A DNA stretch of 64,000 bases from Candidatus Omnitrophota bacterium (GCA_022709525.1 JAKLIQ010000007.1:49720-113719); one strand, 5' to 3'; shown: positions 2 to 57,876, counted from the first letter of the stretch. The notes: a model not told the origin generated them from the sequence alone. Translations and numbers: made by a program.

Positions 2-3000
2 GTCGATGGCTGGAGCTTTGTCGAAACGCGCCAGATGACGCGGGCGGCCTTCGAAGATTTAGCTTCTTATTTAATTGAAGGTTCGAACTCGTATTTAGAG
101 TACCAGGAAGCGAAGCTTTCGATGAGCGCCGGCGACACGTTTTCAATGACAATTTCCCAGGGCGGGACGAGGAGTTACAGTTTCCGGGACAAGGAGACCG
201 GGAGGAGTTTTAGTCTTGGCTCGGCGGCAAGCCATGTTCAATGCGAATGGTCGGAACTGGACGCGGCCTACGTGACAACGACGGGAGTTTTAAACGACCT
301 TACAGCTGCCGGTATTGCAGCTGGATATAAGGTAGAAGACGGAAAAGTCTATCGCATCAAAACATGGAGTTTCTCGGAAATCGTTGAAATGACACAAGCG
401 GCGTTTGAGGAATATGGCGCCAAACTTACCGTGGGCTCGGAAGCGGAAAGACAATATAAAGAAGCCCAAGGTCTCATGGATGAAGATGATAGCTTCATGG
501 TCTCAATATCAGGCGACACCATGAACTACAGCTTTCGCGACAAACAGTCGGGCAGGAGTTTCAGTCTAAGCCAGTCGACGATACCAACGCTTTACGATTG
601 GGATGAAGTTGCCGGGCTTGACCCCGATTTTGTGGATGAAACGGGAGGTGTCAAGATCCTTACCGAAGCGGGCGAGGCCGCTGGATTTTTTATGGTTGGC
701 AATCAGGTTTTCCGTGCCGGCGTCTGGAATTTTTCGGAGAATGTCGAAACGACAAAAGCTGTGTTCCTGGAGCAAACGCAGAATTTAAGCGGACAGGCGC
801 TGGACCTTTATAACGAAGAGAAGGAAGGCGTTACCCTTACGGATGACGATACCTATACGCTTCGCGTGAGCTATGAAGACGGCAACAGTTTCAGTTATCA
901 GTCGGCGGACGGCGCAATATCCTGGAGCATTAGCGCGTCAGAGGAATCTGTCCAAGGCGTTGCCGGCGTCGAAAAAACAACCGTCTGGAGTTTTACTTCC
1001 AGCTCTCAATTCACCTGGGCAGCCGTCTTGGCGGAGGTCTACGCGACGCAAGGATTGACAACGCAAGCAGAAATTAACGCATGGGTAGCCGGCCTCAAGG
1101 GAGCGGATCTTGAAAATTATAATGCGATCCTCGCGTCATCCGAAACAGATACGTTTGTCTATAGCGAGCGGGGGACTCACGACGCAAAAACTCAAAGTTA
1201 CGGCGGTCAAACTGCGGACGGTTCTCGGAGCTGGAGTTTCGGGCGATCATTCAAGGCGTCGCAAGGGAGCCCGACGGAAAGCAATCCGACCGGCATTATT
1301 TATGAATGGGGGAATTGGGAATTCACGGCAAATATGCAGCTCAGCCAAGGCGCCGTGTTGGCCCAGATCTATGCCGCGAATAACCTGACGGCGGGGGATC
1401 AGGCCGCGATCGATGCGTGGTACGCAACTCTGACCGAAGAAGAACAAGCAATTTATAACGGCATTATTGCCGCGCAGGGAGCCGATACTTTCAGTTACAG
1501 TTTGAGCAGGAAATCTGAGAACTACATCCGGCAATCCGAGGACGGCACTACGGTTTGGAGTTTCGGACGGACGCTCGACCCCGTGCTCGGCCGCGCGACC
1601 GGAACGCAGGGAAATAATGTCTGGACGTTCAACGAGAATATCAATATGACCCAGGCAAAATGGCTTGCGACCTTTTACACAGAACACGAATTAGGAACCA
1701 CTGAGGCAGTTAACGTTTGGGTCGCAAGTTTGAGCGCCGATGACCGCGCAAATTATGAGCGGATGATCGCCGCGGCTGGAACTGACCAGTTCTCCTGGTC
1801 CATGGCCAAAAATAGCGTCAATTTTGTCCGTCAAAGCGCCGACGGCGTCATTACCTTAAGTTACGGTCATGATAGGATCACGCTTCCGGCTGATGATTCC
1901 ATCGAGTACCGCACTCGCACGATCGAGGATTATTACCGCGCTATTCTGGGTTACGGTGACGAGCTTATCGCCTCAGCGGCTGTCCAGGAAGAGATCGCAA
2001 ATTGGGCCGGGAGCACATTGACGCTCGCCGCGATCGAAGCGGAATTCCGCGGAGGGAACCCGACCGCGGGAGCCGCCTACCGGATCGCCGCGATCACTAC
2101 CATGTATCGCAATCTTCTCGGCCGCGATGTAACCTCTGACGCAACCGTCTCGGATATCAATATCTATGCGGCCGGGAATCTTACGCTGGAGCAGATCAAA
2201 GCGCAGATCGAACACAGCGCCGAATACCGCACGCGCATTATTTCCGGTTTCTACAGCGATCTCCTTGGGCTTGATACGACGAATACCGAAGCCGCCGCCG
2301 CGATCAGCGCCTATGTCAGCGGAAGCCTTACTTTGGATCAGATCAAAACGGAGATCATGGGGACCCCGGCGTATCGCACCCATATGATCACTAGTTTTTA
2401 TAGCGATCTCCTCGGCCGCGACGCGACCACGGATGCGACGATCGCGGATATCAATACTTATGCCAACGGGACGTTCACTCTGGATCAGATCAAAGCCGAG
2501 ATCATGGGGAGCGCGGAATACCGCACTTACATGATCACCGGCTTTTTCCGGGACCTCCTTGGCCGCACGGACTTGAATTCGGAAGTTACGCTCGCGGAGA
2601 TCAATGCGTTCGTTAATGATGCAACAAAAGCCCTTGATCAGATCAAAGCCGAGATCATGGGGGGTACGGAGTACCGGACGCTTATGGTCACCAGTTTCTA
2701 TACGGATCTTCTTGCCCGTACGGATATTACTTCAGACGCAGCGCTGGCCGAGATCAATGCCTGGGTTAACGATACGACAAAATCCGTCGATCAGATCAAA
2801 GATGCCATTATGGCGTCAGTGGAATATCGCACCTTGAAGGTGACCGCTTATTACCGCGATCTCGTCGGTCTTGATGTTACGGATGCTGCGATCCAGGTCA
2901 AGATCGATGCCTACGTTGCGAGCGATCGTTCGCTCGAAGATATCCGGGACGAGATCGTGGCCGAAAATCCGCTAACCCTTGTGTTCTGGAATTTTTCCGA

Positions 3001-6000
3001 AAGTGTCAATAAACACCGTTCGTACGTGGATTCGCGGCTCCAAACAACCGAGGGTTTAGGGACCGAGGATGAAGTGGTCGATACAGCTCCTCTTACGGAG
3101 GCCGAGGCGCTTTCCGCCGAAGAAGTAGCAGAGGACACCGCGCTCGGCGGGGTTGTTGGCGCCGGAGCCGCTTTAGGTAAATCGCTTGGAACGCTTCTCG
3201 CTTTGAATATGGCCGATCCCAAATGGCAGGGCGCCATGATCAGCCATATCCGGCGCTGGGTGAACGGAGTGCTTCAAAGCGAACTTTATACGGTGGAATC
3301 TAACGATCTTACAGAATCCCGGTCGATCGGTTTTGATGTGGAAGATGGCAGCGTGGAATATATTCATGAGCTTACCATTGACGATCCGACCATCCGCGCG
3401 AGCATTATCGGAAATATGGCGACGGATGCGTCCTTAAAGAAAACGATCACCTACACCGTTTCGTTCGACCAGCTTCCGGATCTTGAGGCGCGCGTGAGCG
3501 GTTATCAGCGCGTTTTCCGCCGCACAGCCATTGCCGAACTTTTCCTCACCGTTTTAAATCGAAGCGCTACCGATGAGGAATTAGCGAATTGGGACAGCAC
3601 CGGGCTTTCGATCGAACGGATCAGCCAGGCCCTTGCGGGCAGCGCGGAATTTCGCGGGGATAGTATCCGGACGATGTACCAGGAGATCCTTGGGCGCGAA
3701 GCGACGGAGGCGGAATATCAGGCCGCGCTCAGCTCAGAGCTTACGCTGGATCAGATCGCCGCTCAGATCTATACCACTTCCGATTATCGCAGGATCGCGG
3801 TCTCCGCGATGTATCAGGAGATGTTCGGCGAAGACATCCCCTCGGCAACACTTGATTTTTACATGAATGATCCTGCCGCAAAAAATTTGACCGTCAACCA
3901 GATCCGGGAAGCTTTTACAGAGCTTGACGGCTATCGCGAACAGGCCATCTCCCAATTGATCGTTCAGCTCTACGGACGGACCCCGCATGCAGCTAATGCT
4001 GCGGAGAACTATGCCGGCGAAGTTGAGACTTGGATGGCAAGCGGCCTTTCGCTTGAAGCTATTGAAGAAGCGATGAAAAACGCTCCGGAATATAAAACGC
4101 AGATCATCGAAGGTTATTTCAGGACCTATCTGAATTATACGGATGAGCAGATTATTGCCGAGGCTGACCGCATTGAGGCTTTAGCGAATAGCACCCAGAC
4201 GCTCGATCAGATCAAGGACGGCATCTTGAATGGCCACGAATATCGATCGCTTATCGTTAAGGATCTTCTCGAGGAGATTTGGGGCAGTATTTGGGGAGAA
4301 AACGGAAATATTTTCGGCCAAAACCTGATCGAAAAATATGTTACAGAGGCAGAGATCAATCGATGGGCTAGCACGACGCTGACCATGAGCGAGATCCAGG
4401 AAGCTGTTATGGACACCTTTGATTATCGTTTTGAGGCCGTCACCGTTTGGTATCGTGATCTTCTTGGATATACCGACGCACAAATCGAAAACTCGTATCA
4501 GATGGAAATTACGATATGGGCCAATGGAACCGGATATCCGGGGGGCAGCGGGAAGCTCACTCTCGCGCAGGTAAAAGCTTATCTCATGACGACACCTCGA
4601 TACCGCCAGTATCAGATCCGCACTTATTATGAAGATCTTCTAGGACGTCCGGCGAGACAGTGGGAGGTAAATCACTGGGATAATTCCGCCTGGAGCCTGG
4701 AGGAGATCGAAGGCAAGATCCTTGAGAGCCAAGAATACCGGAAAAAGATGATCTCGGGTTATTACGGCAGTCTTTTAGGTCTTACTGACTCCCAGATCGC
4801 GACCGATACGATCCAGGCAGAGATTCAAAGCTGGGCCGGTAGAACTTACCTGACGCTTGATGATATCGCGAACGAGCTCAAAGGTCAGCATTCTGTGACG
4901 GGATTGAATTATCGCCGGCAGCAGATCACTGCCATGTACCAGGAATTGCTTGGGCGGGTCCACTCCGAGCAGATCGAGGCATTCGCCACCGGGACCATGT
5001 TGCTCTACGAGATCCGGAATCAGATCATGAGCGGCCAGGCCTACAAAACCCAGTTCATCCAGAATTCGTATCTGGCCATGATTGGCCGCGCTGCCAACGT
5101 CGATGAAGTTGCCGCGCTGATCGGCAAGAGCTGTGAAGAGATCACGTTGTATCTCTATGGCACTGATGCTTATCGGCGGAGAGCCGTGACTTCTTTTTAT
5201 AGGGACCTTCTCGGCCGCGAGCCGGAAACAGGAGCGGTCACTTACTGGGTTACCGTAAAAAAGAACGTGGGTAATGTTACCCGCCTATGGACGGTCGAGG
5301 AGATCAAAAACTACTTTTTAGAAACCGAAGAATATTCCAATAGAGTCGTCAATGGTTATTACCAAGAGCTATTGGGCCGTTCGGCGACGAAGGGTGAAAA
5401 GTCATCGGCATACGCAACGCTTTCTAACAAAACTCAGACTTTCGAGGGTATTCGGACTGCCATTATCAATAGCGCAGAATACCGTAAGAAGATCATTACG
5501 GGATACTATAACGATATTTTGCTTCGCCCTCCTGATACGGAAGGCCTTAACTACTGGGTGGGAACAGAGCTCTCACTTGCCGAGATCGAGGAGGATTTCT
5601 ACGGAACCCGGGAATACCGGAATCGTATGGGGGCCGAGTCTTTTGTCGCAAGCGTTACAGATATTTATCAAACGCTTACGGGGCGCCCCCCCACGCAGGC
5701 CGAGCTAAATTATTGGCTTGCCACCGACATTACGACTGTACCCACTAGCAAGTCGGACCCTAACTATGCCCGTTATTGGTATACAGTCCCTTCGGGTATC
5801 CGGACGGAAGTTCGAAAATCCGAGGCCGGCCGCCGGTTTGCTATCGAAAAATATTATCGTGAAATGTTAGGTATCACCGACTATTGGGGAGTGCCAGGCC
5901 GTTTTATACCCAGCATCGATTCTTATATGGGGACAAACCCTGATACTAAAAAGACTTATACCCTCGACGAAGTCAAAGCCGCGATCCAAAAGCTTATGGC

Positions 6001-9000
6001 CTATAAAGATCGAACGCTCCGTAGTTATTTTGTCACCTATCTCGGCCGCGTCGCTACGGAAAACGAGGTTCGAAGCTTAGTTAAAAATGGCGATTGGGGG
6101 AATGTCGATTTGTCCAGTCTTGAAGAACAATTCAAAAAATGTTCGGTGACGACCTACGATTTTAAGCTTTCGGACGGTACTAATTTTCATTTTGGCTCCG
6201 TTGGTACGGAAAGCAAGACCTATCAACTCAACAAACTTTATCAGAAACTTTTAGGGCGTAATGCAACGGAGGCGGAAAGAAATGCCTGGAATCCCGCGGC
6301 TGTAAAGATCGAAGATCTAGAGAAATCGATGAAAGCAAGCAATTTGGAATATCGCGGCCGCGAAATAAAAACGGCTTATAAAGATCTTTTGGGGATCACG
6401 CCTTCCGATGCCGAAGTGAACCGCTGGCTTGCTAGCGGATTATCTGCGGATACGGTTAAGGGCCTTATTGCCGGCGCAGCCCCCTCGCGCTGGCGCGCTG
6501 CCAGCAGTTACTACCAGCAGCTTCTGAACCGGACTCCGTCCACCGCAGAGATCTACGCTTTGTGTTCGACGGGGAAGACGTTCGACCAGATGCGCAAGAG
6601 CATTGAGGACGGAACGGAATACCGCACGTTGATCGTCGGTCAATATTATGAAACGTTATTGGGACGTCCGGGGAGCGCCTCGGAGATCGCAGGGTGGGTG
6701 AACCAAGACCTGATGCTTTCCGAGATCGAGGCCGATTTTAAACAGGCGCCTGAATACAGAAGCCACCAGATCAACGCAGTTTATCAGGAAGTGCTGGGGC
6801 GGTTAGCCACAACAAATGAGATGACCGCGGCGCAGGCGATCCTGACGGATGCGTTTGAAAATCCGCCGGCGGATCCCGCTCAAACCGCTCTTGAAGTCGG
6901 ATTAGCCGCTATACGCGCCCGCCTTGTCACGCGCCAGGAGTATCGCGCGAAACAGATCGCTGAAGCCTGGACATCCGCTTTTGGAAACGCGCCGAGCGAT
7001 TCCACGCTGAATTACTGGAAATCTTCCACGATGGGGTTGCGGGAAATGACCCAATTATTCTCGGTCTTAAGCGAAGCTTTGCCGGGGGTTACCGAAACGG
7101 TCCAATCGCAATTGACCGGGGTTCAACGTATCGCTTGCGGTTCAAGCAGCGCGACTAACTGCACCCGGAACGGATCCGATGCCGCGAACAGTACGACGAA
7201 TTGGACGCGCGGGTGGATGCAATCGGGAACCGGCCTTTACACATATTGGCAGTCGGATTATTCGACAACGGGGCCCGCTTATTATCGAATGGATTTTGGA
7301 GATCCCGGGGCCACCAGCTGGGAATTGTCGCTTGATGTGCAGAATCATAACATCAGAAATACCAAACCCCCTCTTGCGGGCACCTATTTTGAGATCGAGG
7401 CCCAGATCTGCCCTCTGGAATCCTGCACACAGGATTCGCAATGGATCTCGGCAGGCACTATCCAGATCCCGGCAACCGAATCCGAACAGACGGGAACCTA
7501 CCGGTTTGATACCGCCGCGCCTATCACAGGCCAGCACCTCGTGCGCTTTAAATGGAAGAATGACCAAGCGGACAATACGGGAGATAACAATCTCCAGATC
7601 AATCTCGTGAAGCTTTCATCGCTTGTCTATGCGAGGGAAGCTGAAGTTAACGAGATCTGGAGCGATAGCCATCCTGTCATTACTTCAGCCGCTGAAGCTT
7701 TAACGGCACGGTATCAGGCCGCCGGTCTTGGGGCTTCTCCGACCGCGGCTCAGCTTGCGGCTTACCGGGCCGGGCTCTCAGAAGACGAACAAAGCGTTTA
7801 TGACGCACTCGTCGAAACGGTTGCCGCTAACAGCGCCGAAAACCGGGAGGCGGGGATCCGTCAAATGTATCAACTCCTTAGAGGCGAGGCTCCGGATGAG
7901 ACGACTTTGGAGCAATGGCAAACGTCGAGTCTTACGCTGAACGAGATCGAAGGGCGGCTTATTGACGGCGCCGGCTATATCAAAAACGTTGTTTATAAAG
8001 TGGATGCTTACGGGGATGGCAGTTTGGTGCTCGGACGGACTTTTGATCCTACGAGCGGCAAAGTGGAATATTTTGGCCAGCGACAGCTTACGGACGCGGC
8101 CGGTCTTGATCACGGCATCGGAACCAATCAACGCGCCGTAGAATTCTGGACATACAGCGGAGCGCTGAACGATCCGGCTTCCAAGATCGTGTCGCATCGG
8201 GTGACGTTGGATGTTTACGGGAATGGGACCCGCACACGCACCGCATCATGGACGGTCGTCAACGGCCAGGATGTTGCCGGAAGCGCGGCCTTCGAAGAAA
8301 CTCGAGAGCTTTCCTGGTCGGGCGGGCTTGATCAAGGGCTGGCGGATAATACGCAACGCGCGAGTGAGACGATCCGCTACACGGACAGCACTTTTACGAC
8401 CCGCGGTTCGATCTCCTTTTCGCTGGATGTGAACGGCGATTCATCGCTTGTCCGTTCCGCCAGTTATTTTGTGAATTCCGACGGAACACGCGGAGAATTG
8501 ATCGGTTCGACCATAAAGGAGAATCGGTACGGAACGGATATTTCGGTCAGTAAGAGTTACGACGACTTAGCTTTCAGCGAAGTAAAGACTATCAGCGAGC
8601 AGGAATCCTTGGCTGACGGTACAAGCGATATTACGACGTATGAGGTTTTGGCGGACGGATCCAGGGGCTCGGCGTTAGAATATTCCAACACGCAGCAGCT
8701 CGGCGCTCTTCTTTCCCGCACGATCGTTTATACCGGTTCCAGCCGGACAGCCATTTCCCGCGCATTTGACAGCATGCAGGCGCTTATTCCCAATCGGGGT
8801 TACGACGCTTTCCGTGTCCTGCATTATCAGATTGAACCGCTCAGCGGTCTTGCCAGGACCCAGATCACCTCGGATCATTTAAGAGGCGATTACTTGATGG
8901 AGTACGTTTATAACAGTTCCGGCGCTGTGGTCGATCTCAAGACCTGGGAATTTCCTCAAAATGCCGTATCGGGCGCGCCGGAGATGACCGACACTTTGAC

Positions 9001-12000
9001 AGAAACAACGCCCTCAGCCCTTGTCGATTCCAGCATCGTGACCGACAGCGCGAGCGCTCTACCCGTTGTGATCGAAAGCTTTGACAATGTTAACCAATTG
9101 CGGTGGACACTGCAGGGTAATACTTCCATTGAGAACGGGGTTTTGAAGTTACAAGGCGGTACGGGGGGCTGGGGCGACAATGCGTTTCTTCAGTCGGTCA
9201 GTCCTATTCATAATCCAAGCTGGTCGGCAGATTTTTCGATCGCTGCGGGGGCTACGCAAACCCATCTGGCGGTGGAGGGAACCGGGACAGACGGCCGCTA
9301 CCGGCGTTTGGGGATCGTTCAGCAGTCCGCTAATCAATTAAAGGTTCAGATATACAATGCTGCTACGAACAATTGGGAATATCCCGTTCAGAATATTCCC
9401 TTTGTGGCCGGCAAAGAATACACGGTCGATTTTGAGGTGGTGAACGGAACGCTTAGTCTTTATCTGTACGAGAAAGGAACAGCTCATCCCGCCGCCTCGC
9501 TTTATTCCGTTTCAGTCCGGGATTGGGCGCAGGCGAATTTCCATACCTGGATATGGAGCGGTTCGGCGACGATCTCCGGTCTCCGTTACGGCGCGAATCC
9601 TCCGTTGCCTTCCGTTCTCCAGTCACAGGTAAATGGGGCTAACCGCGTTATTTGCTCAGGATCCAGCATGGCAAACTGCACCAGGACCGGCAACGACACT
9701 TCAACGGATGTCGGAAGATGGACAAAAGGCTGGATAGAATCGGGCACCAGCGCCTATACCTATTGGGATTCGAATACGACGGGAGCGGTTTATTATCAGA
9801 TGGATTTTGGGAGCACGCCCCAAACGACCTGGGAATTTTCAATGGATGCGCAAAATCATCCCTTCAGGACAGCTTCTCCCGTCGCTAACAGTTTTTATGA
9901 AATAGAAGCCCAGATCTGTCCGTTAACGGTTTGCACTCAGGAGTCTCAGTGGGTCTCCGCCGGGACGTTGAAGATCGCCGCGAACGATTCGCAGCAAACC
10001 GGGACGCTTCAATTTAACGCTGCCTCGGCTCTTTCCGGCCAACACACAGTCCGTTTTAAATGGAAAAATAACCTTGGGAACAGCACAAGCGATAACAATC
10101 TTCAGATCAATTCGATCCGGCTTTCCTCACTTTCTTATGCGATCCCGTCCCCGACACTAGCGACCAATCTATTGCCGCTAAACTGGACACTTCGGGGGAA
10201 CACCTCGTTGCAAAACGGCGCGTTGACGTTGCGGGGCGGTACGGCGAACTGGGGGGATAACGCCTTTCTCCAAAGCGTCAACCCTCTCAGCAACCCAAGT
10301 TGGTCCGTGGATTTTTCGATCGCCGCGGGATCTTCCGGTTTTCATGTTGCCGTGGAAGGATCAGGGGCGGATGGGAGCTATCGCCGGTTAGCGTTGGTCC
10401 AGCAATCCGCCAACAAATTACAGGTCCAGATCTGGAATAATAATCGTTGGGAGTATCCCAAGCAGAACATTTCTTTCGTGCCCGGAAGAGAATATACCGC
10501 GGATTTTGAAATGGTGAACGGAACGCTCCGGGTCTTTTTCCACGAAAAAGGCACCCCGCGTCCCGCCATAGCGACTTATTCGGTCTCTACCAGGGACTGG
10601 GCGCAGGCGAATTTCCATACGTGGATCGCTTCGGGATCTGCCGTGATCTCCGATATGCGCGTTTCATCCATGACTTACGCTTCGCAGCTTCCGCTGATCT
10701 CGCAGCTTGAAGCGATCGATCCTTCCTGGAATTTTGACGGGATCGTCGGAGTAGCGAACGGGACCCTTCAATTGACGGGGCCGGGAGGAACAGCTTATTC
10801 GCATTTCAATACGAGTTATTTGGTTCCAAGTCTCAATCCCGCTTACTCCGTCGATTTTTCACTTACCAATGTGGCCAATCCGTCATTTTATCTTGCAGTG
10901 GAGGGAGTGGGACCGAATTTAGGGAGTCCGGATAACGGAACATATCGCCGCTTCGGGATCAAAGTCGATAGCGGAATAGCGACCATCCAAGTTTTTGACG
11001 GCTCGCAGGCATGGAGCTCGGCTCTGCAGAACGTCTCCATGCGCCTTGAGGCCGGGAAAGAATATACGGCAGATTTTATCTCGCAAAACGGCGTCATCAG
11101 GATCTATCTTTACGAAAAAGGCGCGCCGCGTCCGGCTGACCCATTTTTTACCATCCAGAATACGGATTGGCAGGGCATACGGCTTCATAGCTGGATCATA
11201 AACGGAACGGCCAATATCAATGAGATCCGCACGGAGCTGAACCCTGTTTCTGTTGCTTCGAATGTTTCTACGGGAATGATTTACAATCAGAATTATGCAA
11301 GCGCCGCGCTTGGCGCAACCGTGACCGGCGGAGTGAGCGTTGAATCCGCCATCGATGGACTTCTCACCGATAGCGGCTCCACCGGATTCTGGTATGTCAA
11401 TGCTGCTCGGAACGAGAATCTAGCGGCGCTCGGCACGATCGATCTGGGTCAGCTAAGGCGGATCAACGAAATCGGTCTTCAGCTTTGGGACGGCCAAGTT
11501 GATCGGGTTTATTACAACTATAAAGTTCAGATCTCGGCGGACGGGGTCAACTGGACAACCGCTTTTGACGGAACGGGGTCTGGGACAAATTTTCAGGGCC
11601 TGCAGACCATTCAATTTGCAGAACAGGATGTCCGTTATATCCGGATCTCGGGAAGCGGCAACTCAGTGAACGCGGGCTTCCATGTTGAAGAAGTATACGC
11701 AAAACTTGTGCCGCCTTCCGCGATCGATTATGCGTCGCTTGCCATGGGTGCCCGGTTCATTCCGGCCAATCTCAACGTGGGCGCCCCGAACGCCGTTATC
11801 GATCCGGGCGTTTCAGCTACGGGCCACTACTTGTATTCTTTCCTCTGGAGTACCGCGGCAAAAAATGAAACGCTTTACGATATCGGCACTCTCGACCTTG
11901 GCCAATCCCGGACCATTAATGAGATCGGCGTTCACTTCTGGGATGGCGATAACCGCTCTTATTACAATTTCAGCGTCGAAGTTTCCACTGACAATGAACA

Positions 12001-15000
12001 TTGGACCACGGTCTTTGATGGCACGGGTTCCGGGCAAAATTATCAGGGTCTTGAAACCGTCCAATTCAACGCGCAGCAAGTCCGTTATGTCCGGATCAAA
12101 TCGAGCGGCAATACGGTCAATAACGGAGCGCATATCGAGGATATTTCAGCTCGCTACATAGAGAGTTACCAGTCCGCCGGGGCGCCGGCCCCGATCGGCG
12201 GGATCGTGGGTTATACGCATACTTATAATGTGGATTTTGGCTCCGAAGGCGGAGATACGTGGAGCATCTATGCTCCTTATGAGCAACTCGCGGGGTACGG
12301 CGTCAATTATGCCTCATCCGCGCAGGGCGCCACGCTTTTCTCCATCGCGTCGGGGCCTTCTCTCGCCGCGAACGCGATTGATGGGAATAGCGGGACTTTC
12401 TGGATTGCCGGCACCAGCGGCACGCAGAACGAACGACTTTATGAGATGGGCACGATCGACCTGGGTCAGCCCCGCAATATCAACCAGGTCTCTTTTGATT
12501 TTAGCAGCGCGAATAATCGCCTCCACTATAACTATAAGATCGAAGTGATGGACGCGACCGGCCGGTGGCAAACGGTCTTTGACGGGACGGGTTCGGGGCA
12601 GGATTATCAAGGTCGCCAGATCGTTAACTTCAATACCATCAACGCCCGGTATGTGCGCATCTGGTCCAGCGGGAACAGCCACGATACAAGCGGCGCGGCG
12701 ATCGATAACCTCGTTGTTACGCGCAGGCAGCTTGCCGGGGATGAATTGAGCGGCCTCATGGCGGAAGTCCTTGAAAACGGCGAATGGGTTTCGCTGGGTG
12801 AGCTTTCAGCCGATGGGATGTTTTCTTTTACCAAGGCGCTTTCGGGCGTTCAACAGATCCGATTTGCTTCGCCCCTGCCGGAAGATTTTTCGATCAGCGA
12901 GCTAGTGGCCTATCGCGTTTTCAGGGATCCCGGGGTCTCCACCGAAACGCTTCCTCTGATCAGCGAGACTTTTTATAAAGGGACCCGAGGTTCCGAGATT
13001 ATGGATTCCATCGCGCAATACACTTATGTCAATGGGGCGCGGACGAATTCTTCGGTGATCCAGTATTTTTATAAGGATGAAGCCGGCAACGCGCGCAGGG
13101 CGGCCGAGGCGGTCGGACATGACACATGGGAAATTTGGTATGCCGACACGCTGAATTCGCAAGGCGTCGAGCGTCATTTCCTTAATACAATTTCCGGATC
13201 GGCTTTTATGTCAACAGCCACATCCGGCTGGTCACTGGATAGCCAATCTGCCTGGGCGACGGGATCTGATTCCGGCTCTGCGTATTATCTGGCGGATTTT
13301 GGAACGGAAGGGAACGATCTTGAAATTGTTTTGAATGTTCAAAATCACGGCGCAAATCCGATCCCGGGCAGCCGGTTCGATATCAAAGTCGAGGTTTGCG
13401 TCAATACGACATGCTCGGATCCTTCCGACTGGGTTAGCCAGATCGTTTCCGTTGATGCGTCTAGGACGTCCCAGAATATCGCGGCGGTTTTCGGAGGCGG
13501 CCTGACGGGTCAGCATCAAGTTCGTGTTTCCTGGCTGAATTCAACCGAGCAGGCGACTGTCCCAGAATCATTTGCGGCGTACCGGAATAATCTTCAGATC
13601 AATTCTCTGACCTTCAATGAATTCCGGTCGGTGTCGGGTCAATGGACGCTGGATTCCAGAACTTATTATCGGGACGATAAACAAACAATCGATTACGTTT
13701 TAGAATATGACGCGGTGACCGGAGAAGCCGTATCGTATTCGAAAAATATCTACAGTGCGGCGGATGGAGTCATCGGATCAGATGATCTTGCGGCGGTTGT
13801 TCAATACAACATCAGCGGTCAAGCGGACGTCCTTGTCCCGGGAGACGCTGCCGCCGATGACATCACGGGCGTTCAGTTCACGAATCTCTGCACCGATACG
13901 GCGTTGCCGACCACCGCGAATACCCGCGAAAGCGCGTTTCTCTCCAATTTTCTCGCCAATGGTTTGGTTGCGCAGCTTGCGTCCGAGCAGTCGTTCGACA
14001 GGCTGGGTAACAAAGCCGTTCTGGTCTATCAATTTTCTTATGGGATCAACACGAACACTGCGGGGCTTATAGTTTCAACGCTCAATCCTGCGGCAGCTCT
14101 TTATCTTTCTCAGCGGATGGAATATCAGTACCGCGCGAATGGAACGCTTGAGTCGGTGGAAAATTTTATCCAGCGCGCAAGCGGCTGGGCTTTGAACACC
14201 ACCACGTTCTATCAAGCGGATGGTAACGATATCGATTATATCCAGACCCATGTAACGGGAGGCCCAGACACCTTCACCTATTACAGTTATCATGCCTCCG
14301 GAAAGTGGACGGGGGATTACCGTCTCTACATGACCGCGCGTTATTCGGAGAACGGAAATTCCGGCGAGCCGGGCGCGCTCCTGGGGAAAGCTTTCTTTAA
14401 CACGAGCTCCGCTTATATCGCAGAAGGCGAAAGCGCCGCGGGCCGGGTTTACTACGATCCTTTGAAGTATGGCTCACTCATCGTCCGCGCGGAAGACTAC
14501 CAGGCGGTTACGGATGATCTCGCGCCTCTCGCAAACCGGGAACTCGTGAACGGTCTTTTTGTCGCAAGATTTACGACCACGTATTATGACTATGACGCCG
14601 TCACAAAAGAAATGCTTTCATCTTCGTCCTATGCGACGACCTACGCCAGTGGGACCGCTGCTACGGCATGGTCCAGCACGACCGGTTATCGCGCGGACGG
14701 GCAAACTGATTATGCGGTGTCATCCGTAGGTGGAGACCCCAATAACCGGACGCGGACCCAATATAACTATTTAGAACTCGGCCACGGTCTGGATGGCATT
14801 TATCTCTACTCCGAGACAAAGAACGAACTAACGGGCGCGCTCAAATCGCGCGTTTACACAAATGCCGCTGTGGAAGCGGACCTTTTAGGGCTGATCTCCC
14901 TTGATTTTGTGAACGGGTGGCCGGCAGCTCAGTTCGCGACAGCGCTTTATGGTGTTGTCACGCTCACCGTAGAAGAATTCCCGGTCGACCAGGGCCTGGA

Positions 15001-18000
15001 TGCGCTCGGGACGCACCCTTACAGTTTGACGCTTTCAACCTATGCCGTGTCGGGGCGCTTGGCCCGAACCGATCGCTTCTATGTTGCCGAAGGGCAACGG
15101 ACGCTTGAATCGCAAACCTTTTACAAGACCGACGGAACTCGTATCGATTTCATCATCAACTGTAATGCCGCCGGAAAATACGAAAGCAAGGATGTCTATA
15201 TTTACCGCTCCGGCGCTTACAGCCATCTGCTTTATCAGACGGAGCGTTACCACCGGAGCGGGGTACTTACCATGGTATCCACCTTTACCTACTCCATAAC
15301 CGGTTCCGCGCTCCGTTTAACGTCCGTTAGCCATCCCTCGCGGAGCACAGAGACTTTTTACTATACCGCCTCGGGCATTCTCGAGCGATCGGTCATGGTC
15401 AACCACAACGGAAAAAAGCTGCAGGAGACCTTCTACGATTCCGTGACCGGCCTCAAGAACAGAGCTGTTTCTTTCGGGATGGACGGTTCGGTTATCGCCG
15501 AAGAAATCTATGAATACGATGCCGACGGGCGATTAATGAAGTCGACAAGGGCCCAGAAAGACGGGACCGGCCGGGTCATGATAACGACTTACGAAGGCCG
15601 GAAAGGTTTTGAGCGGGCGATAAGCCGCAAGACATACGCCGATGGGAGTCTTACGGATCTCGAACAGGAAACCACATCGGTTTATAACGCCGATGGCAGC
15701 CGCACGGACAAAACGATCGATCACACTGCCGATCCCGATAAAGAGAACGAGGTCTATAAGACCGTGACGGTCTATGACGCCCTGGGACAGAAGGTTTCGA
15801 GTGAAAGCTATGATAAGGCCGGCAAAAAAATCGGGGCGACTTCGAATTACACCTATGATGAGTACGGCCGGGAAAAAACCTACAAAACCTGGTCTTCTAA
15901 AGAGGGATGGCAGCTGGTCCGCATTACCCGCTACAACGATTTCGACCTCGTGACCGAACAGTGGACCGGAGACAAAACCAAATCCGTGATGGAGTATTAC
16001 AACAATTTTACCCTGAAGCGTTCGGACTATGTCGTTTACACGCTTGGGGAAGCGGATATGTTTGGCTGGTCAACCTATAACATTATGGGCGATGAGACCG
16101 GCACGGATTCCGGGCTTATTCCCGGAGGACCGACTGACCGTATGGTCAAAGCTGCGGAAGCTGCCGCAGCTGCAGCCCAAAAAGCGGCGGCGATTGCCCA
16201 GCAAATGGCGACCCGGGCGCAGCAGCAGGCCCAGGAAGCTCAGGATGCCGCAAACGAAGCGCAGGATCGCGCGTCAAGAGCTCAGGACCGGGCAGATGCC
16301 GCCGGCGATGCCGCAGAACGGGCTGAAAACGATATGTTGGCCGCAGAAGCCGAGCGTGATCGCGCTGAGGCGAACCGGCTTCGGGAGCAAGCGAAGGCGG
16401 AGTTGGCCACAGCAAAGCGGCTACTTGAGGAAGCCGCAAGTCTTGCGCGGTCAGCTGCTGCAGCCATGAGAGAAGCGGCGAAGATGATGGATGAGGCCTC
16501 AAAGGCGATGAAAGCGGCAGCGCAGGCCATGAAGGAAGCAACCCAGGCGATGGAGAACGCGCGTGACGCTTACGAGGCGCTGAAGGCTCTCGGAACGCTC
16601 GATGAGGATGCGATCCAGGCGACGATCGACAGTTACAGCGACAGCATCTTGTCGATGCGGGACAGTACGGCCTCCCTATTGGACAATGCGGCGAGTTTGA
16701 GTGATAGCGCCGGCAGTTTAAGGTCTTCGGCCTCCAACATGGATGATGCGGCGGACAGTTACTCCGATATGGCCACCCTGGTAGGCCTGGTTTCCGCGGA
16801 GATGTTTGGCGGGGACGCGAGCACCGGGGAAGGGGCTGTGCTTTGCGATTGGCTTTCACATATCTGTTGGGGCGACGGCTGGGCGTATTTCCAGCTTGGC
16901 GATGACAATGAAGACGGAACAGACGATTCGTTCGTGATCTTTGGCAGCCCCCGTAACGTTACCACCGGAGAAGGAACGCAGATCCATAATTGGACCCTTT
17001 CCGGCGATCAGACCGCAGCTTATTGGGATGGTATTAGCACTATGGGTGACGATGGTTTTCACTGGACCGGCCAGTGGCGTGTGACGGCGGACGGCGACAT
17101 TTTGAACGGGCAAGTGCTTTACACCTATCAGAATTCCGTTTACTACGACGGCGATCATCAGGAAATGGTCTATTACTACAATGCCGCCGGAGATCTGATC
17201 AAGGTTACCTGGGATTACGAGTATAGCGATTCCCAGATGATGAGCGATACAGAAGTCGACAACGAGGGAACTTGGTACAACACGGACTGTGCGGATGGTC
17301 TGGCGGCCTTCAACGCAGACTATGCCGCAAATCCGAACGGCGATTGGGAGCAGAACGACGACGGAACCTGGAGCTTAACAACAAAAGATATTTGCGAATC
17401 TGATGTGACTTGGGTCGGCATCATTTTCGTTATCGTTGTGATTATCATCGCGATAGTCATAACAATTGCGAGCTGGGGCACTGGGACCTGGATCGGCGTA
17501 GCAATGGTCGCCGCGGCATGGGTCTGCATTGCTGTCGCCATTGTGTGTGCTGCCATGATGATCTATAGCAAGCTGACCGGCGATGATGCGTTCGGTCTGG
17601 ATGACACCGAATGGGCGGCTTATTCCGTTCAATTTTCATGTTTGGCTATATCTTTGGGAGCTGGCGCAAGCCGTTTATGGTCGAGTACTTTTTACGCCAG
17701 CTTGGTAACCGGATTTATTAATGCTCTATTCACATACGGAATGACCGGCGATATTGGGAAAGCAATCACCGTCTTTGTTTTAAGCGTTGTTTTGAGCCTT
17801 CTCTCAAAATGGGTACCGTCTAATTACTTTATCGTTAATTTGATCGTTTATTTTGTGATCACCACGTTCGTTTATGCGCTCGCGACTTATCTGACAGCCG
17901 ACGAGGGAACCTACGACTCCTTATGGGATGCCGTGGAGGATGTCTGGGTCTATTGCCTTGTGATTGCGTTTTTTATGGCGCTCTCAGCCCGAAGCAGTAG

Positions 18001-21000
18001 TCAAACCGACGGAAATGCCCCTGGTAAAACAGACTCCACCGCCGCAAATACTCGGGTCAATTCCCTAGATATGAAGTTCAATTGGGGACAAGGCGTCATT
18101 AAATTTTTGCAGTCATCTGCTTCAATATTTTTTGACATGATTATGGCGAGCGATAAAACTGACAAGCTTCTTGGCGACAAATGGGGTCTTAAAGAATATG
18201 ACGAGGATACGCGCGAATATGAGGCGACGACAGCCGGAAAAATTGTAATGTCCGCGATGAATTTTATGGCGACGTTGAGTTACGGAAGCCCCTCGCTTAC
18301 TCTTTGGAATTTTGCTTCAGGTTTGGCGGCTGCTCTGGCGGGAACCTATGTTACCGCCAGGGAGCAAGAGAGCCTGGAGAACACGGGAATGAAGGATTAT
18401 ATTGCCCAATCGCTTGCCGGACAAATTGGAGGAGTTGTAAGCGGACTCGTTGGTATGGCTTCCAAATTGTTGCAATACGCTATCGATTCCGATGTAAGGG
18501 CAACGCTCAAGACGAATGGTTTTAGTCTGCTGGAGTTTCTAAGGGGCCGGTGGGATCCGGCGACGGGTAAATTGCAAGAAGTCACGATCGGTAAGAACGG
18601 ACTCCTGATCGTCGACAATCAATTTTTTAATAAAAAAGGAGACGTTATAGCATCGTTCCAGACCATTGGAAACGAAGCTTTTCAGTACGCAGAAAAAGAA
18701 GCTAAGGGAGCGTATGCAGTTGACGCGGCTTTTCGACAAGGGATTGCGCAACGGGGGGAGAGCGCTTTGACAATAGCGGCACTCCAAGCGGGCGCGACGT
18801 TCACTTTGTCCAAAGATGGCAAGTTGGAGAAAACAAGTTTCGTAAGCCGGGTTCTTTCGTCGCTTTTTGGCGATGTGGCTGCGGGTACGGTTACGGCAAA
18901 GTTCGGAGACTTATCGGTAACCCTCGAGCTTACCGAACAGGGGTTGCTTTCCTATGATGCTGATCGCAATGGGCAATTGGACGTCGGTTCAGCGGCATAT
19001 ACAGCTTTGGCAAGGATTTTCACGAATAATGACACAAAAACTTATGAAGGTTGCGAGAATCTAGTTCAGGATCTTCAAAAATCCCTTGGAAAAGGAGACT
19101 TGAAAGGCGTTGTGAGTGTTAAGTTTGGCGTTGCTGATTTTCGAGCGAATGGGCAGGCCTATGGCGATGTGACATTTTTAGTTTCACGGCAGAGCGTTGC
19201 GATCACCTATCAGCTTGCAGGCGCCACATGGACGGCGATAGGCGCGAATTTCCAAGGCGCTGTTCATGCGATGTTTGTTTTGGATCAGGCGTTAGTTGAG
19301 GCGGGCATTGGCCGGGTTTCGGATTTCTTCAAAAATATGAATTTTGAAATGAAAGACGGAAAGCCCAACGAGACTTTGAGTAAATTTATGAAGTTTGGCG
19401 ATTATCTGTCCAAGAACCTCGGCCGAGGAGAAAGTATAACCGCCACTTTCAATGTCAAATACAATGGAAAAGACTACAGTTTGTCTGCGACCTGGCGGCG
19501 GGGCAGCACGACCTTTGAGTTTAACGCGCGCGCGATTGATGGCAGCCGTGTATTGGTTTCTTTTACGTTTGCGACGACGACGGATGCCATGAAAGCATTC
19601 ATGGCGATTGCGGATTTTGCTGCGACTTTCGACTCCCTTGTTTTTAGTAAGGACAATCTTGGAAAGATCATTGCATTTAGGGATGGTGTTTTTGGTGCGC
19701 TTACAAAAGCGGGGCTTTCGACGGATCGACTTGACCTGACATTTACAAAAGCGGACGGGACCTCGGCCGGAACATTTACGGTATTTGCTGATCCGGGCAG
19801 GTCCGTTCTTTTTAAAGGCGCGACGATTGGCAAAGCGGGCGGGGCGCATTTGGTCCTGATGGGGGAGGCCGTGAGTTTTTCGGATGCTGTGACCGGTCTC
19901 TCGGAACTCGATACAGTCTTAAGCGGTTTCGATGGCTCTTCATCGGGGATGCAAGCGGCTATAAGAACGTTGCTTGCAAGCGACAGTTTCAAGCTTTTTT
20001 CGGGACTCGCTTTGAATTTCATGCAAGGGAATGCGTCGCTTGGTGCGGTTATGTTTGAAAGCGTGGATGGCGTGATGACCGGGCGGTTCATGAATGTCCA
20101 AGTGAATGGCGAGAAAGGTTCGGTCCGGTTGGGAGGGCGTTTTGCCGCCGATCAAGGGGGAGTCGATCAGGCGTTCAATCGTATTAACGGGATGCAGGAA
20201 AAATTGAAGAACTCGGATTTGTCTGGGGACAATGCGGAACAGCTTGCATTTGATGCTGCCTGCGAACTTCTCGGAACGGAAGGGATAGCGTCTGAAGCGG
20301 AACGGAACGCGATGGGAGAGTTCGGGGTTACCCTGTTCGAAAAACAAACTGGGTCGTCCGTCACTTTTCTCCTGACGAACCTCGGAGACGGCATGCTTGG
20401 GCTTCGGGTCCAATTGGATCTGGGAGGCGGTTTTCAGATAACTTCGGGGACCCAATACAAATTCTCTGCGAATGACCCAAGCGCGCGGCAAATAGCATTT
20501 AAGACGGGTTCAGATTGGGCAGCCGGTCTTCAGAAATATGATGTAGGAGACCGGTCGCGAGGTTCAAAGACCGGATTACGGGCGCTTCTGAAAGACGCCG
20601 CCATCTCGTGGAAGGATGAGTTGGCAGCGGCTCCCGTTCAAGGGGTCGAGCGGGTCGCCGGAATTTTAGAAATAACTTTTTCGGGAGAAAATAATACGGC
20701 TTTCAGCCGGCTTGAGTTTAGCGTCCAAAACGGCGTTATTTCCATGCAATATTTCGGACGTATTCTTGGTAACGGGTACGAAGATCTTACCTATTCAACC
20801 ACGCCGATCGAGTTTGGAGAGGGGCATGCGGATATATCCGGCGTCGATTTTGGCGTTGACCTCTATGAGGGAAATTTGCAGTTTAACGAACGGTTTGCTG
20901 GGGACATGAAAGCCCTTGGTTTGCTTAAGGACATCATCAACATGCCCGATAAACCGCGTCTGGATTCTCCGAAAGATCAGATCGGTTTCATCAGCAAAAT

Positions 21001-24000
21001 AAATCTAATGCTCGACAGTCAAGGGGTTTTGCAAGAGACCCTGGGCCAGGAGATCCTCGCCTTTGTTACCGTCGCTTTCTTCGCCGGCACTCCCCTCGAC
21101 CCGATGGGCGTTGGCGCGGATCAGAAGCAGCACATGACCTGGTCTGTTTATGATGAATTGGGAAATGTTGTCGGGCATGCCGGCAGCGTCCAAGGCAATA
21201 CTCTCAGCGTCAACCTGAAAACTCAAACAGCAACGGTTAACGGAGAAGCTTTCAGCATCAAACAAGATGAGCTTGGCAGGGTAACGCTTCAATTTTCCAT
21301 AACGGATAAAGGGAGAGAAACAACGGTCAAGGGTGTCCGTCAAGAATATAGCGTTCTTGACCTGAGCGCTTTCGATTTATCGACGCAGGGAGCCATCCTT
21401 ACCCAGTTAACGAGCATGGGCCTCATCCACAATCAGTTTGAGCTAATAGTAGGTGGGGAACTTGTTGTTGCCGGTTTTGGCGCCGAAGGAGATGTTCTTG
21501 CTTTTTATACAGCACAAATGAAGAAAGATGGTCAAGTTTGGGTAAAGAGCAAGGGAGATATTGTCACCCTGACGCCGGCAGAGGCAACGACTCTTTTAAA
21601 AGAATCAAATAGAAATCTTTATAACTTTTTGAAATTAGAATCTGGTCAGAACGTTTTCTTGAAACCGGCAAGTACGCTCGAGGGAGCTTACATGCAGGAA
21701 GAACAACAGGCGATATGGCGGGATTTGGGAACAGTGGGGATTACGCAGACGACCACAATTCTTGTGGGGACAACATTACAAACTGCCCAACCGGTTTTGT
21801 ATCAATCGCCTGGCATGGGGCAGAACGCATGGATTGTTATAGGGGGCAATGGAAATCAATATGCTTATGATCGAACAGGTCAGGGCTTTGAGGTTTATTC
21901 GGATAAGCCGGTTGAAAGTGGCGTCAAAAATGTAAGCGGCTTAAGTTCGGGAGCGCAGGAAGCCGTAGCAGGCATTCCTGCCAACTATAAAAACGCAACA
22001 ACGCAGGGTCAGATTGATCAATACGCACAGGTTACCCACACGATTACGGATTCGCAAGGCAACGTTTTGAACGGGACGGTCCTTGGCAAAGAACTTGCGA
22101 GCGTTTTTGGTCTTTATGACACCACGGTGCTTATGGCCGGTGGCCAGGCGGTTTGGCAATTCGGCGGGACTAAATTCGATGCCCTGGTCAACAAAACCAT
22201 TGTGCTTCGCGGGCTCGGAGTTAACGAAGGCCAGTACGGGGTCGTGAACGGCGGCTTTTATAAGCCCACCGCTAATCTCCTGAACGGTAAAGCCCAAACA
22301 TTAGCGGGTGTTGACGCCTATCAAAAGAGTCATCCCGAGGCTGCTCAATACAAAATCCTCAATAGCCATACCTTCACGGACGCCAAAGGGAAGCTGGTCG
22401 AAGACGGAACAGTGCTTGATCAGACGCTTTCTAACGCTATGGCTCAAATCACTGGCGCTCGGGAGCAAATTATCCTCATGAATGCGGCCGGCCAGGACAT
22501 CGGCTGGTTCTTTGGATCCGATATTACAGTATTAAATCAAGCCGGCGCTGTTGTCTTCGGCATGGATATGCAGTTTAACGCGAATACAAACAAAGTGGAG
22601 CCAGTAGGGAAACAAGGCTCCGCCCAAGTCAATGAAAACGGCACTTGGAAAAACGTTACGATCTTTGGGACCCGGGACCGCATAGCCGGCACCGCCGCCT
22701 TAAATGGCGGCATCGCTGTCACAGTCCATGGCACGGATTATACGGTCCAAGGCGAGGTAAGCACTGAGCAGTCCCTGGCGATCGAAATGGCCTTAAATAA
22801 CGCTAATGTGATCAGCTACGAGTGGCGGAGCGCCACGGCCTCAGGCGTTGCTTTCTGGGCCAATGGGTCCCTTAACGCTTATATCGCAGATAACCAGCTT
22901 TGGGTGATCGCGCAAGACCGCAACGCCGCAGGCCAGGCCGTTTACTTCCAGCCCGCCACCGCCACGATCGCCGGAACTCTTAAAACCTACAACCGTGATG
23001 AAATGAGTTCAGAACAAGTTGCCGAACTCGATGCTGTGATCGCCAAAGACCCTGCTTTTATGAGCCATGTTTCACTGACCTTAAGCGGTAAGGGGACTAC
23101 GGTCACGGGCTCTGAATTCTATGAATTTACAGTTAATGGCGAACTCCTTGATCCTTCAAGCGTTACGGCCAATATGCTCGGTTCGATGGGTTATCTCACC
23201 TATAACAACGAGACAGTATCAGCAGGCGCAGGAAAGATCTTCTTAAGTGATGGCGCGGCGCTTTCCGCCTCCTTTGCCGCCAATGGAAGCTTTATCTGGG
23301 CTCAGGAGGGGAATACGACCGTCATTAACGGTCTTTATGTTCAAAGCGGCAAAATGAGTCTTGGGGCGAACCATGCGCTTGTCGCAAGCGGCAGCGAGAT
23401 TCGGGTGGTCGGGTCCGATGGAGTAGTGTCTTATAAAAAATCCGTATCTGTGAGCGTGAACGGAATTGCCGGAAGGACAGGCAATGACCTTGCAATTGAT
23501 GGAGAGATCGCTTTCTCGGATGGAACAACGAATTATCTCCTTGGCTTTAACGGCACCCAGCTTGTGGCGGGCCTGCGCGGCACCGACACGCTCTCTTTTA
23601 ACATGCTTAATGCAGCAACCCTTATGACCGGGAATATCACCAATATCGCCTTTATCCAGACCCAATATTACACTTACTCCCTTGACCGGATGCAAAAAGG
23701 TCTTTTTGAGACCGATCTAAGCGGCAAACGCACCCAGGGATGGAATCATGAAACGGGGACGATGCTTGTTTCCACGACCAATAAGACGCAAATCGCAGAG
23801 TGGGCCAATAAAGCGCAGGTAACCGGTGCTTCCGTAAATCTTGAGGGCGGCGGCACGATGCCCGTTGATATTAACGTAAGCTATGCAACCGAGCTTTGGG
23901 TGGGGGCAGGCGGTCTGGCCTTCTTCTTTGCCGGCAGCGATGAAATCGGCGTTTTCCAAGGAGCGCTTACGGCCGGAAGCATGGGGAACCTCAGCTCCGT

Positions 24001-50487: not shown

Positions 50488-50937
50488 CTATTTGAGAGCG
50501 GCTTTGACAGCTTCCTGGATGCGTTTGCCGTCGGCTTTTCCCTGAACGGCAGGCATCAGAACTTTCATGAGTTTTCCCATGTCAGCAGGGCCTTTGGCGC
50601 CGGACGCAGCGATCGCCTTTTGAACTTCAGTTTTCAACTCGTCGTCGGATAGCTGTTTCGGCAGATAAGCTTCAAGAATGGCAAGTTCAGCCTTTTCCTT
50701 ATCCGCCAGGTCTTTGCGGCCGCCTTTTTCGAAACTCTCCAGGCTTTCCCGCCGCTGTTTGGCCTGTTTGGCGATAATACCCAGGATATCGGCGTCGTCC
50801 GCCTTGTCCTTTTTCGTCTGGATTAGATAGTTCCCGAGGGCGCTTTTAAGCATCCGCAAGGTCGAGACCTTGACCGCATCTTTGGCCTTCATGGCGTCGA
50901 TAACATCTTTTTCGATCCGTTCTTGTAAGCTCATCAC
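50488..50937 (-). CDS. yqeY: GatB/YqeY domain protein
   Basis: MMSLQERIEKDVIDAMKAKDAVKVSTLRMLKSAL...AELAILEAYLPKQLSDDELKTEVQKAIAASGAKGPADMGKLMKVLMPAVQGKADGKRIQEAVKAAL. Confidence 0.9.
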   Translation of the reverse strand: MMSLQERIEKDVIDAMKAKDAVKVSTLRMLKSALGNYLIQTKKDKADDADILGIIAKQAKQRRESLESFEKGGRKDLADKEKAELAILEAYLPKQLSDDELKTEVQKAIAASGAKGPADMGKLMKVLMPAVQGKADGKRIQEAVKAALK

Positions 50938-51020
50938 TTAACTCCTTTGTGTGAAGGTGGTTTATAGTTTATAAAACAAGTTCCTGGGCTGTCAGTCTTC
51001 AGCTTTCAGTCATCAGCGAA

Positions 51021-51057
51021 CTGAAAACTGATAGCTGATAGCTGATTGCTGATAGCT
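51021..51057. repeat. tandem heptamer CTGAAAA-CTGATAG-CTGATAG-CTGATTG-CTGATAG in the yqeY upstream / batB-like downstream gap
   Basis: ctgaaaactgatagctgatagctgattgctgatagct. An adjacent short hairpin tttcagt...actgaaa is also present. Confidence 0.5.
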
Positions 51058-51062
51058 ATTAT

Positions 51063-55834: not shown

Positions 55835-55946
55835 AGAGCTCGCCCCGTTAGAAGTTTAACCCTATCACAAAAAATCATAGAACGATATTTTCCCGGAAAT
55901 GGTTGGATATGTGTTCCCGCCATATTTTTTTGAACTTCTAACGGGG

Positions 55947-56936: not shown

Positions 56937-56956
56937 AGAGTTCTCCTTTTTAGTGA

Positions 56957-57814: not shown

Positions 57815-57827
57815 GGAAACCTCCGCT

Positions 57828-57876
57828 AATAAAACGCAGAACGGGAAGCCGGATTTCCGGTTTTTCCCGTTCTGCG
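57828..57876 (-). terminator. rho-independent terminator of dnaK (13-bp perfect stem CGCAGAACGGGAA / TTCCCGTTCTGCG followed by TTTTATT on the minus strand)
   Basis: Plus strand aataaaa-cgcagaacgggaa-gccggatttccggttt-ttcccgttctgcg. Lies 18 nt after the dnaK stop. Confidence 0.7.

Follow-up and report, generated by a model that had tools for sequence, protein, structure and literature searches.

A tandem repeat array inside a giant gene

We analyzed 64,000 nucleotides (nt) of Candidatus Omnitrophota bacterium (GCA_022709525.1, JAKLIQ010000007.1:49720-113719), a stretch that we refer to as the window and in which positions are counted from its first base. Its plus strand carries one giant open reading frame (ORF), and within this frame lies a long tandem array of short repeats belonging to the protein family DUF4214, the subject of this work. 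Counted from the first ATG (nt 35), the ORF spans 35..40771 and encodes at least 13,578 amino acids (aa; protein positions below follow this count). The frame is open back to base 2 (2..40771), and the gene is thus cut by the 5' end of the window. Bases 2–34 translate as VDGWSFVETRQ, which is the motif that closes the N-terminal modules of the protein, and no Shine–Dalgarno sequence or other ribosome-binding site is seen upstream of the ATG. It follows that the gene extends upstream beyond the window, that 13,578 aa falls short of the full length of the protein and that the ATG at nt 35 is not the true start, an incompleteness that matters for the annotation of the gene. In its visible part, the protein runs through N-terminal modules, a first block of DUF4214 units (block A), a linker and a second block (block B) to lectin modules of the CBM32/discoidin kind; a first transmembrane cluster comes next and is separated by further sequence from a second one, after which a charged C-terminal region follows.

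A first-pass annotation of the window had described about 35 near-tandem copies of a unit of roughly 45 residues at nt 1900–7110, without noting that they form a small part of one giant gene running off the window. A long near-tandem array of ∼45–50-aa units is indeed present there, in the plus-strand frame of the giant ORF, and the motif described agrees with the consensus that we obtained (xIxxxYxxLLGRxxxxxEIxxWxxxxLTLxxIxxxIxxxxEYR). A unit profile trained on 15 clear units and then iterated against the protein (a self-derived hidden Markov model, or self-HMM) recovered 27 units at E < 1e-3 between aa 629 and 2304 (nt 1919–6946), besides three degenerate ones (aa 1679–1714, 1995–2035 and 2307–2343). 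Counting by period gives 29 units, seven in block A and 22 in block B, with lengths of 43–69 aa (median 49 aa). The copy number is thus lowered to about 29–30, and the range has to be widened by one more unit that lies outside it (see below).

Block A (plus strand, 1919..2977; aa 629–981) was delimited with the self-HMM as seven DUF4214-like units, five of which (aa 684–932) are the most alike of the whole array, with 53%–73% nucleotide identity and a period of 147/153 nt. It is followed by the sole break in the array (plus strand, 2978..3526; aa 982–1164), where the acidic, Gly/Ala-rich and W-x-F-S-E features of the single interruption noted previously were all found. The break opens with VFWNFSESV (WNFSE at aa 985–989, nt 2987–3001) and continues with an acidic stretch (aa ∼1006–1035, nt ∼3050–3139) and a Gly/Ala-rich hydrophobic stretch (aa ∼1036–1060, nt ∼3140–3214). 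The latter is probably not a transmembrane helix, since its Kyte–Doolittle mean is 1.43, below the cutoff of 1.6 used in our transmembrane scan, and it contains a lysine. The last ∼100 aa of the interruption have no detectable similarity elsewhere in the protein, and self-BLAST returned no paralogue for aa 982–1118.

Block B (plus strand, 3527..6946; aa 1165–2304) comprises ∼22 periods, of which 20 are significant and two degenerate, and several of its units bear insertions of 5–25 aa. A marginal last unit follows at 6953..7063 (aa 2307–2343; plus strand, E = 0.014), and an isolated extra unit stands ∼900 nt past the end of the array, among beta-rich modules, at 7856..7978 (aa 2608–2648; plus strand, E = 1.9e-13). 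The array as a whole is acidic (isoelectric point 4.7, net charge −77). The conserved positions of the unit are mostly of the core type (Y6, L9, L10, G11, R12, I19, W22, L29, I32, Y42 and R43) while the rest vary, a pattern that fits a scaffold. We counted minus-strand ORFs within the region (e.g., 1973–2383 and 2911–3237) as side effects of the long coding frame.

Nucleotide identity and age of the repeat units

The array is striking by eye at the protein level, and the first-pass annotation had read it as the product of recent unit duplication. Our comparison of the units leads to a different view. Over the profile match columns, mean identity between units is 29% at the amino acid level and 45% at the nucleotide level, with a nucleotide peak of 73%. 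Even the five most similar units (aa 684–932) are separated by a synonymous divergence (dS) of 0.8 to >2, with a nonsynonymous divergence (dN) of 0.22–0.61 (Nei–Gojobori), and dN/dS is roughly 0.1–0.5 for most pairs. A dS this high between the closest units indicates that the duplications are old and that the units are under purifying selection. Tandem Repeats Finder reported just 2.1 copies (153-nt period, 76% identity), and a nucleotide repeat search found 60%–75% identity at 147/153-nt spacing, confined to nt 2090–2870.

A 30-nt sequence had been thought to be shared identically by several adjacent copies. The 30-mer itself occurs exactly once (2480–2509), with a 29/30 match at 2633–2662 and a 27/30 match at 2333–2362; what holds is a single exact pair of 27-mers found by an exact-repeat search on the plus strand. 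The first copy, GATCAGATCAAAGCCGAGATCATGGGG, encodes DQIKAEIMG (2483..2509), and the second lies one unit downstream (2636..2662). Neither the array nor the rest of the 40.7-kb gene holds any other repeated k-mer of at least 15 nt, and all other pairs of units share exact runs of at most 14 nt. Among 200 control arrays in which synonymous codons were resampled according to codon usage in the gene itself, two had a run of at least 27 nt. The patch is thus mildly unusual, and it may be a short conversion tract, the vestige of an older duplication or a chance match.

These observations bear on the earlier proposal that the array is a recently expanded repeat, prone to slippage or recombination and with a variable copy number in the manner of a contingency locus, or else a repeat that the assembler has collapsed. 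In its favor, the identical patch in adjacent units, with its 27/30 variant one unit upstream, is longer than the longest runs of 198 of the 200 codon-resampled controls; five neighboring units are more alike than the rest; and contigs from other metagenomes and from related metagenome-assembled genomes (MAGs) have their ends at the giant gene or close to it. Five 2–3-kb contigs that digester metagenomes yielded for the same species (loci L001–L005) begin in the last 20–180 nt of the gene. Three contigs of related MAGs break as well (L006, L007 and L010): in JAKJDL010000007 (L007), a homologous giant-protein C terminus (54% identical over 247 aa) adjoins yqeY and the contig stops 0.8 kb into the giant gene, and the two others end beside yqeY or batD. 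These breaks, however, sit at the 3' end of the gene, outside the array, in contigs of 3–5× coverage. Against the proposal also stand the divergence between even the most similar units, the lack of near-identical units, and the 2.1 copies that are all Tandem Repeats Finder sees. For slippage or recombination to be frequent, far more homology would be needed than a single 27-nt exact repeat provides. The k-mers and reads that assemblers usually work with also exceed this repeat in length, so that the units can be placed uniquely and a collapse of copies is unlikely. We therefore regard the proposal as largely refuted and very unlikely to be correct. Judged by its sequence, the array goes back a long way and is stable as DNA, and it should not be flagged as hypervariable or misassembled.

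Family membership and predicted fold

A Pfam scan of aa 1–2522 matched DUF4214 (PF13946) with 62.7 bits, well above the gathering cutoff of 23.2 (E = 3.3e-17), bearing out the family assignment of the first-pass annotation. Three two-unit segments of block B pass the cutoff on their own (24.2, 26.8 and 36.4 bits), on profile positions 24–46/52; of the remaining block B segments, two score below it (19.2 and 17.9 bits) and two have no match. The same stretch (aa 1–2522) also reached a summed 39.1 bits for the phycobilisome (PBS) linker family PBS_linker_poly (PF00427; cutoff 28.7), with matches limited to profile positions ∼57–115 of 126 and no single stretch passing alone.

In the reciprocal direction, we built a profile from 26 units and ran it on a library of 1.84 billion cluster representatives, from which it retrieved 10,413 proteins at E ≤ 1e-3 and 2309 at E ≤ 1e-10. 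All six of the top-ranked proteins that were scanned (P0005–P0009 and P0016) carry PF13946 (E from 5e-36 to 3e-93). These six are matched mainly on positions 24–70 of the DUF4214 profile, indicating that the ∼49-aa unit is the DUF4214 core. Among the best-scoring 150 of the 10,413 retrieved proteins, the largest number of matched stretches in any one protein was 18, compared with about 29–30 units here. In the PDB, the unit profile also picks out the ApcE linker repeats (E = 8.8e-5).

The definition of DUF4214 goes back to secreted proteins from segmented filamentous bacteria (SFB), where a resemblance to the phycobilisome linker 2KY4 was noted (PMC3371716), and in SFB the domain is considered a likely surface anchor (PMC12780176). 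The family is widespread, with >10,000 cluster representatives matching the unit profile, yet the literature that we found assigns it no biochemically tested function.

A search of the array against 5.8 billion proteins gave only four weak matches (23%–28% identical over 16%–35% of the array length), and no relative was found in GTDB species genomes or JGI metagenome contigs. The C-terminal 923 aa of the giant protein, searched against the same 5.8 billion proteins, retrieved nothing at E ≤ 1e-10, even though the 54%-identical fragment described above exists in L007.

We modeled six units of block A (aa 684–981) with AlphaFold2 (AF2), using other stretches of the array as the rows of the alignment. 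The model is wholly helical, with a mean predicted local distance difference test score (pLDDT) of 91.6 and a predicted template modeling score (pTM) of 0.75, and has three helices per unit, of ∼16, 12 and 9 residues. Most of the same units again exceeded a pLDDT of 90 in a second model (aa 546–1000). The top Foldseek matches of the predicted fold in the PDB were PF00427 linker domains (3osj, 2l3w, 3pru and 2ky4; probability 0.98–1.0). The units are thus predicted to adopt an all-alpha fold related to the one found in the phycobilisome linker. The confidently modeled six-unit fragment (aa 684–981) could be expressed to test the role of DUF4214.

The giant protein, its genomic setting and the role of the array

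Upstream of the array, the plus strand encodes six N-terminal modules of ∼95–120 aa each (35..1912; module HMM, E from 1e-25 to 1e-37), preceded at nt 2–34 by the tail of a seventh. Two helices and a beta meander of three strands make up each module, which a W-x-F-S/T-E motif closes (at aa 111, 231, 318, 428 and 530); the secondary structure of module 6 was assigned with DSSP on the AF2 model. Neither Pfam nor NCBIfam finds a family for the modules. Modules 4–6 contain a helix like AEINAWVAGL that is similar to the DUF4214 unit's middle one.

The way in which the modules meet the array suggests that block A has been inserted in a loop of the sixth module. This module has no closing motif of its own, the module HMM covering only positions 1–73 of ∼95, and a near-identical motif stands directly after block A (VFWNFSESV compared with GVWNFSENVE); MAFFT aligns its WNFSE with the motifs of modules 1 and 2. 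In the AF2 model of aa 546–1000, the WNFSE segment is unpaired and has a pLDDT below 50, leaving the nesting of block A unconfirmed.

Downstream of the array lies a region of ∼180-aa modules (plus strand, 7076..13624). Self-BLAST in chunks found copies at aa 2348–2523, 3006–4226 and 4396–4530, at most 64% identical, amounting to at least six repeats between aa 2348 and 4530. The region includes CBM32 or F5/8 type C (discoidin) lectin domains (Pfam F5_F8_type_C_2, E = 3.7e-39), with three Pfam F5/8 type C or NedA-like galactose-binding domains around nt 12356–12673, and its PDB matches are CBM32 modules, including those of alginate lyases. A Kyte–Doolittle scan (mean cutoff as above) then found two clusters of hydrophobic helices on the plus strand, at 17414..17989 (aa 5794–5985; at least five predicted transmembrane segments) and 27443..27628 (aa 9137–9198; two to three predicted segments). 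Two such strongly hydrophobic predicted clusters inside the protein indicate an integral membrane protein. The C-terminal ∼3.5 thousand residues (nt 30000–40771) are rich in charge (K+R 11%–16%, D+E 14%–16%) and low in Ser/Thr, have no family match except a weak one to ResIII (E = 0.0017; aa ∼10534–10642), and may form the cytoplasmic part of the protein. About 70% of the giant protein has no Pfam match, and NCBIfam gave no match in its first 7500 aa.

Directly downstream of the giant gene, at 40927–50106, come a gene for an AbiEii-like nucleotidyltransferase and then a sugar-nucleotide cluster encoding Gmd (TIGR01472, 538 bits against a cutoff of 415), two B12-radical-SAM enzymes, a methyltransferase, a DegT-family aminotransferase, a GT2 enzyme and a C-methyltransferase. 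The cluster has a GC content of 0.47–0.49, compared with ∼0.52, and is absent between yqeY and the end of the giant gene in L007; together with the AbiEii-like gene, this makes it look like an inserted island. Ordinary chromosomal genes follow on the minus strand (50488–63531): yqeY, an aerotolerance-type operon of BatA–D, MoxR and DUF58, dnaK, and genes for a methyltransferase and for a sigma-54 response regulator and its histidine kinase. The DnaK of the window is 94% identical to that of the Omnitrophota MAG JBAZER010000038; against three further Omnitrophota or uncultured MAGs, the identities are 87%, 87% and 85%. The window shares the order of genes around dnaK with four Omnitrophota or uncultured MAGs.

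Taken together, we think it likely that this old, diverged array of ∼29–30 DUF4214 units is an acidic helical scaffold in the N-terminal arm of a giant Omnitrophota surface protein. In such a scaffold, three-helix units of ∼49 aa, each homologous to half a PF00427 domain, would stack into a continuous acidic all-alpha structure. The array would be part of an arm placed outside the cell, as is presumed from the lectin-type domains that the arm carries, and would form a long, semi-rigid scaffold or stalk of perhaps tens of nanometers. It could thereby space the terminal modules and lectin domains and present them toward another cell (prey or host) or the cell's own envelope. The variable unit surfaces may add weak multivalent glycan binding, as proposed for other DUF4214 surface proteins.

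Several points weigh against this scaffold reading. The segments of block A, taken alone, have no Pfam match to DUF4214 and show only weak similarity to PBS linkers. The Foldseek matches to linkers have weak E-values (0.17–0.7) and TM-scores of 0.34–0.36 over ∼115 aligned columns, a length at which one linker domain corresponds to about two units. A continuous rod, with its shape and length, is suggested solely by the regular helix pattern and the pTM of the model, and we infer the scaffold function itself, the literature that we found holding no biochemically tested activity for DUF4214. Our searches yielded no orthologous array for comparison. The N terminus, with any signal peptide, lies beyond the window, and both the number of transmembrane helices per cluster and the topology of the protein are uncertain.

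The array might instead act mainly as a glycan-binding anchor and not a spacer, tethering the giant protein to a surface polysaccharide, by a proposed analogy with Psh on O-antigen and with the N-terminal domain of RsaA on lipopolysaccharide. This polysaccharide might belong to the cell itself, as a modified 6-deoxy-amino-sugar that the neighboring cluster produces, or to a prey or host cell. The enzymes encoded directly downstream (Gmd, DegT, two B12-radical-SAM enzymes, methyltransferases and GT2) are in keeping with the idea, as is the likely anchoring role of DUF4214 in SFB (PMC12780176). In the Psh preprint, >80% of Psh-like DUF4214 proteins adjoin O-antigen or type I secretion system (T1SS) operons and O-antigen binding was modeled. 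That binding is based on Boltz-2 modeling and gene neighborhood, though, and the RsaA N-terminal domain (6t72 and 6z7p), while among our Foldseek matches, is not a significant one (probability 0.14–0.16, E about 2). The adjacency to sugar genes is not conserved either: in L007 the C-terminal end of the giant gene adjoins yqeY with no sugar cluster between, and the cluster here, with its lower GC content and AbiEii-like gene, looks like an inserted island. Poorly conserved non-core positions argue against 29 equivalent binding sites, and the giant protein already has dedicated lectin domains. On this evidence we regard a mainly anchoring role as unlikely, though as an alternative to be taken seriously.

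A bolder version is less probable still: the array as the longest known multivalent glycan-recognition rod, whose 29–30 units have diverged so that each would recognize a different surface sugar epitope. Were it so, a predatory or episymbiotic Omnitrophota cell could latch onto varied prey envelopes or onto its own methylated amino-sugar glycan, a product of the neighboring cluster, and DUF4214 would gain a first assigned function, that of a helical lectin repeat. The similarity in sequence and fold to PF00427 and to the REP domains of ApcE could also be taken to mean that the units are true phycobilisome-type linkers, each docked in a ring-shaped partner as PF00427 is in phycobiliprotein hexamers. 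Omnitrophota are non-photosynthetic, however, the window holds no phycobiliprotein-like gene among its genes, and it is the C-terminal half of the PF00427 profile that is matched, in no stretch sufficiently by itself; we find this explanation scarcely credible.

We return to the scaffold reading to place the protein among known systems, where it is a new member of two classes, the DUF4214 repeat proteins and the giant repeat-scaffold proteins of Omnitrophota. With DUF4214 repeat proteins (e.g., 'Cluster.1' of SFB and the RTX-DUF4214 protein Psh of Pseudomonas putida) it shares a helical unit of ∼47 aa with the pattern Y-x-x-L-L-G-R ... W ... S-x-E-Y/F, a tandem arrangement of units, a secreted or surface setting and a fold related to the phycobilisome linker. 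Those are secreted proteins of 0.3–3 thousand residues, whereas the units here lie in a transmembrane giant of more than 13.5 thousand; and unlike Psh, which is an RTX protein, it gave no RTX or T1SS signal in a Pfam scan. The PF00427 domains of ApcE (REP), CpcC and CpcG (3osj, 2l3w, 3pru and 2ky4) are the best PDB matches of the units by both sequence profile and predicted fold, and have in common with them a helix-loop-helix of the form LLGR-x-P ... E-I-x-x-Y ... S-x-E-Y. The linker domain, however, is a closed globule of ∼130 aa, equal to ∼2–2.5 units, while the array is open; moreover, half of its profile is matched here, in a host without phycobilisomes.

Giant genes of Omnitrophota are known to fragment assemblies; their proteins are mostly membrane-anchored and often have one dominant repeat, with nucleotide tandems that have decayed (bioRxiv 10.64898/2026.06.07.730766; bioRxiv 10.1101/2023.11.21.568195), and they have been implicated in adhesion and predation (bioRxiv 10.1101/2023.11.21.568195). 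DUF4214 occurs in neither bioRxiv 10.64898/2026.06.07.730766 nor bioRxiv 10.1101/2023.11.21.568195 (0 occurrences in each). The protein described here is encoded by a single ORF in an Omnitrophota genome that, at 13,578 aa and open to the edge, exceeds the 10,000 aa taken to define such giants, and the predicted helix clusters at aa 5794–5985 and 9137–9198 supply the membrane segments expected of them, on the Kyte–Doolittle scan. A Pfam scan of all 13,578 aa found no domains of the Archaeovorin type (glycosyltransferase, glycosyl hydrolase, peptidase, methyltransferase, NUDIX or HEAT). The dockerin or EF-hand repeats and thrombospondin type 3 repeats of the Dockerin type were likewise missing (no Pfam match to PF00404 or PF18884), while discoidin domains, which are accessory in the Dockerin-type class, are present. 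Compared with the tandem-repeat scaffold class (Nielsen & Lui 2026) and the Dockerin-type class (West-Roberts et al. 2023), the protein has the same phylum, a length of >10 thousand residues and transmembrane segments. It also resembles both in its dominant repeated domain, its discoidin modules, the decay of nucleotide tandems with the protein repeats kept, and the breaking of MAG contigs at the gene. It differs in that its dominant repeat is DUF4214, with no dockerin, TSP3, HEAT, NHL or WD repeats found by Pfam. DUF4214 thereby joins the repeat scaffolds used in the giant surface proteins of Omnitrophota.

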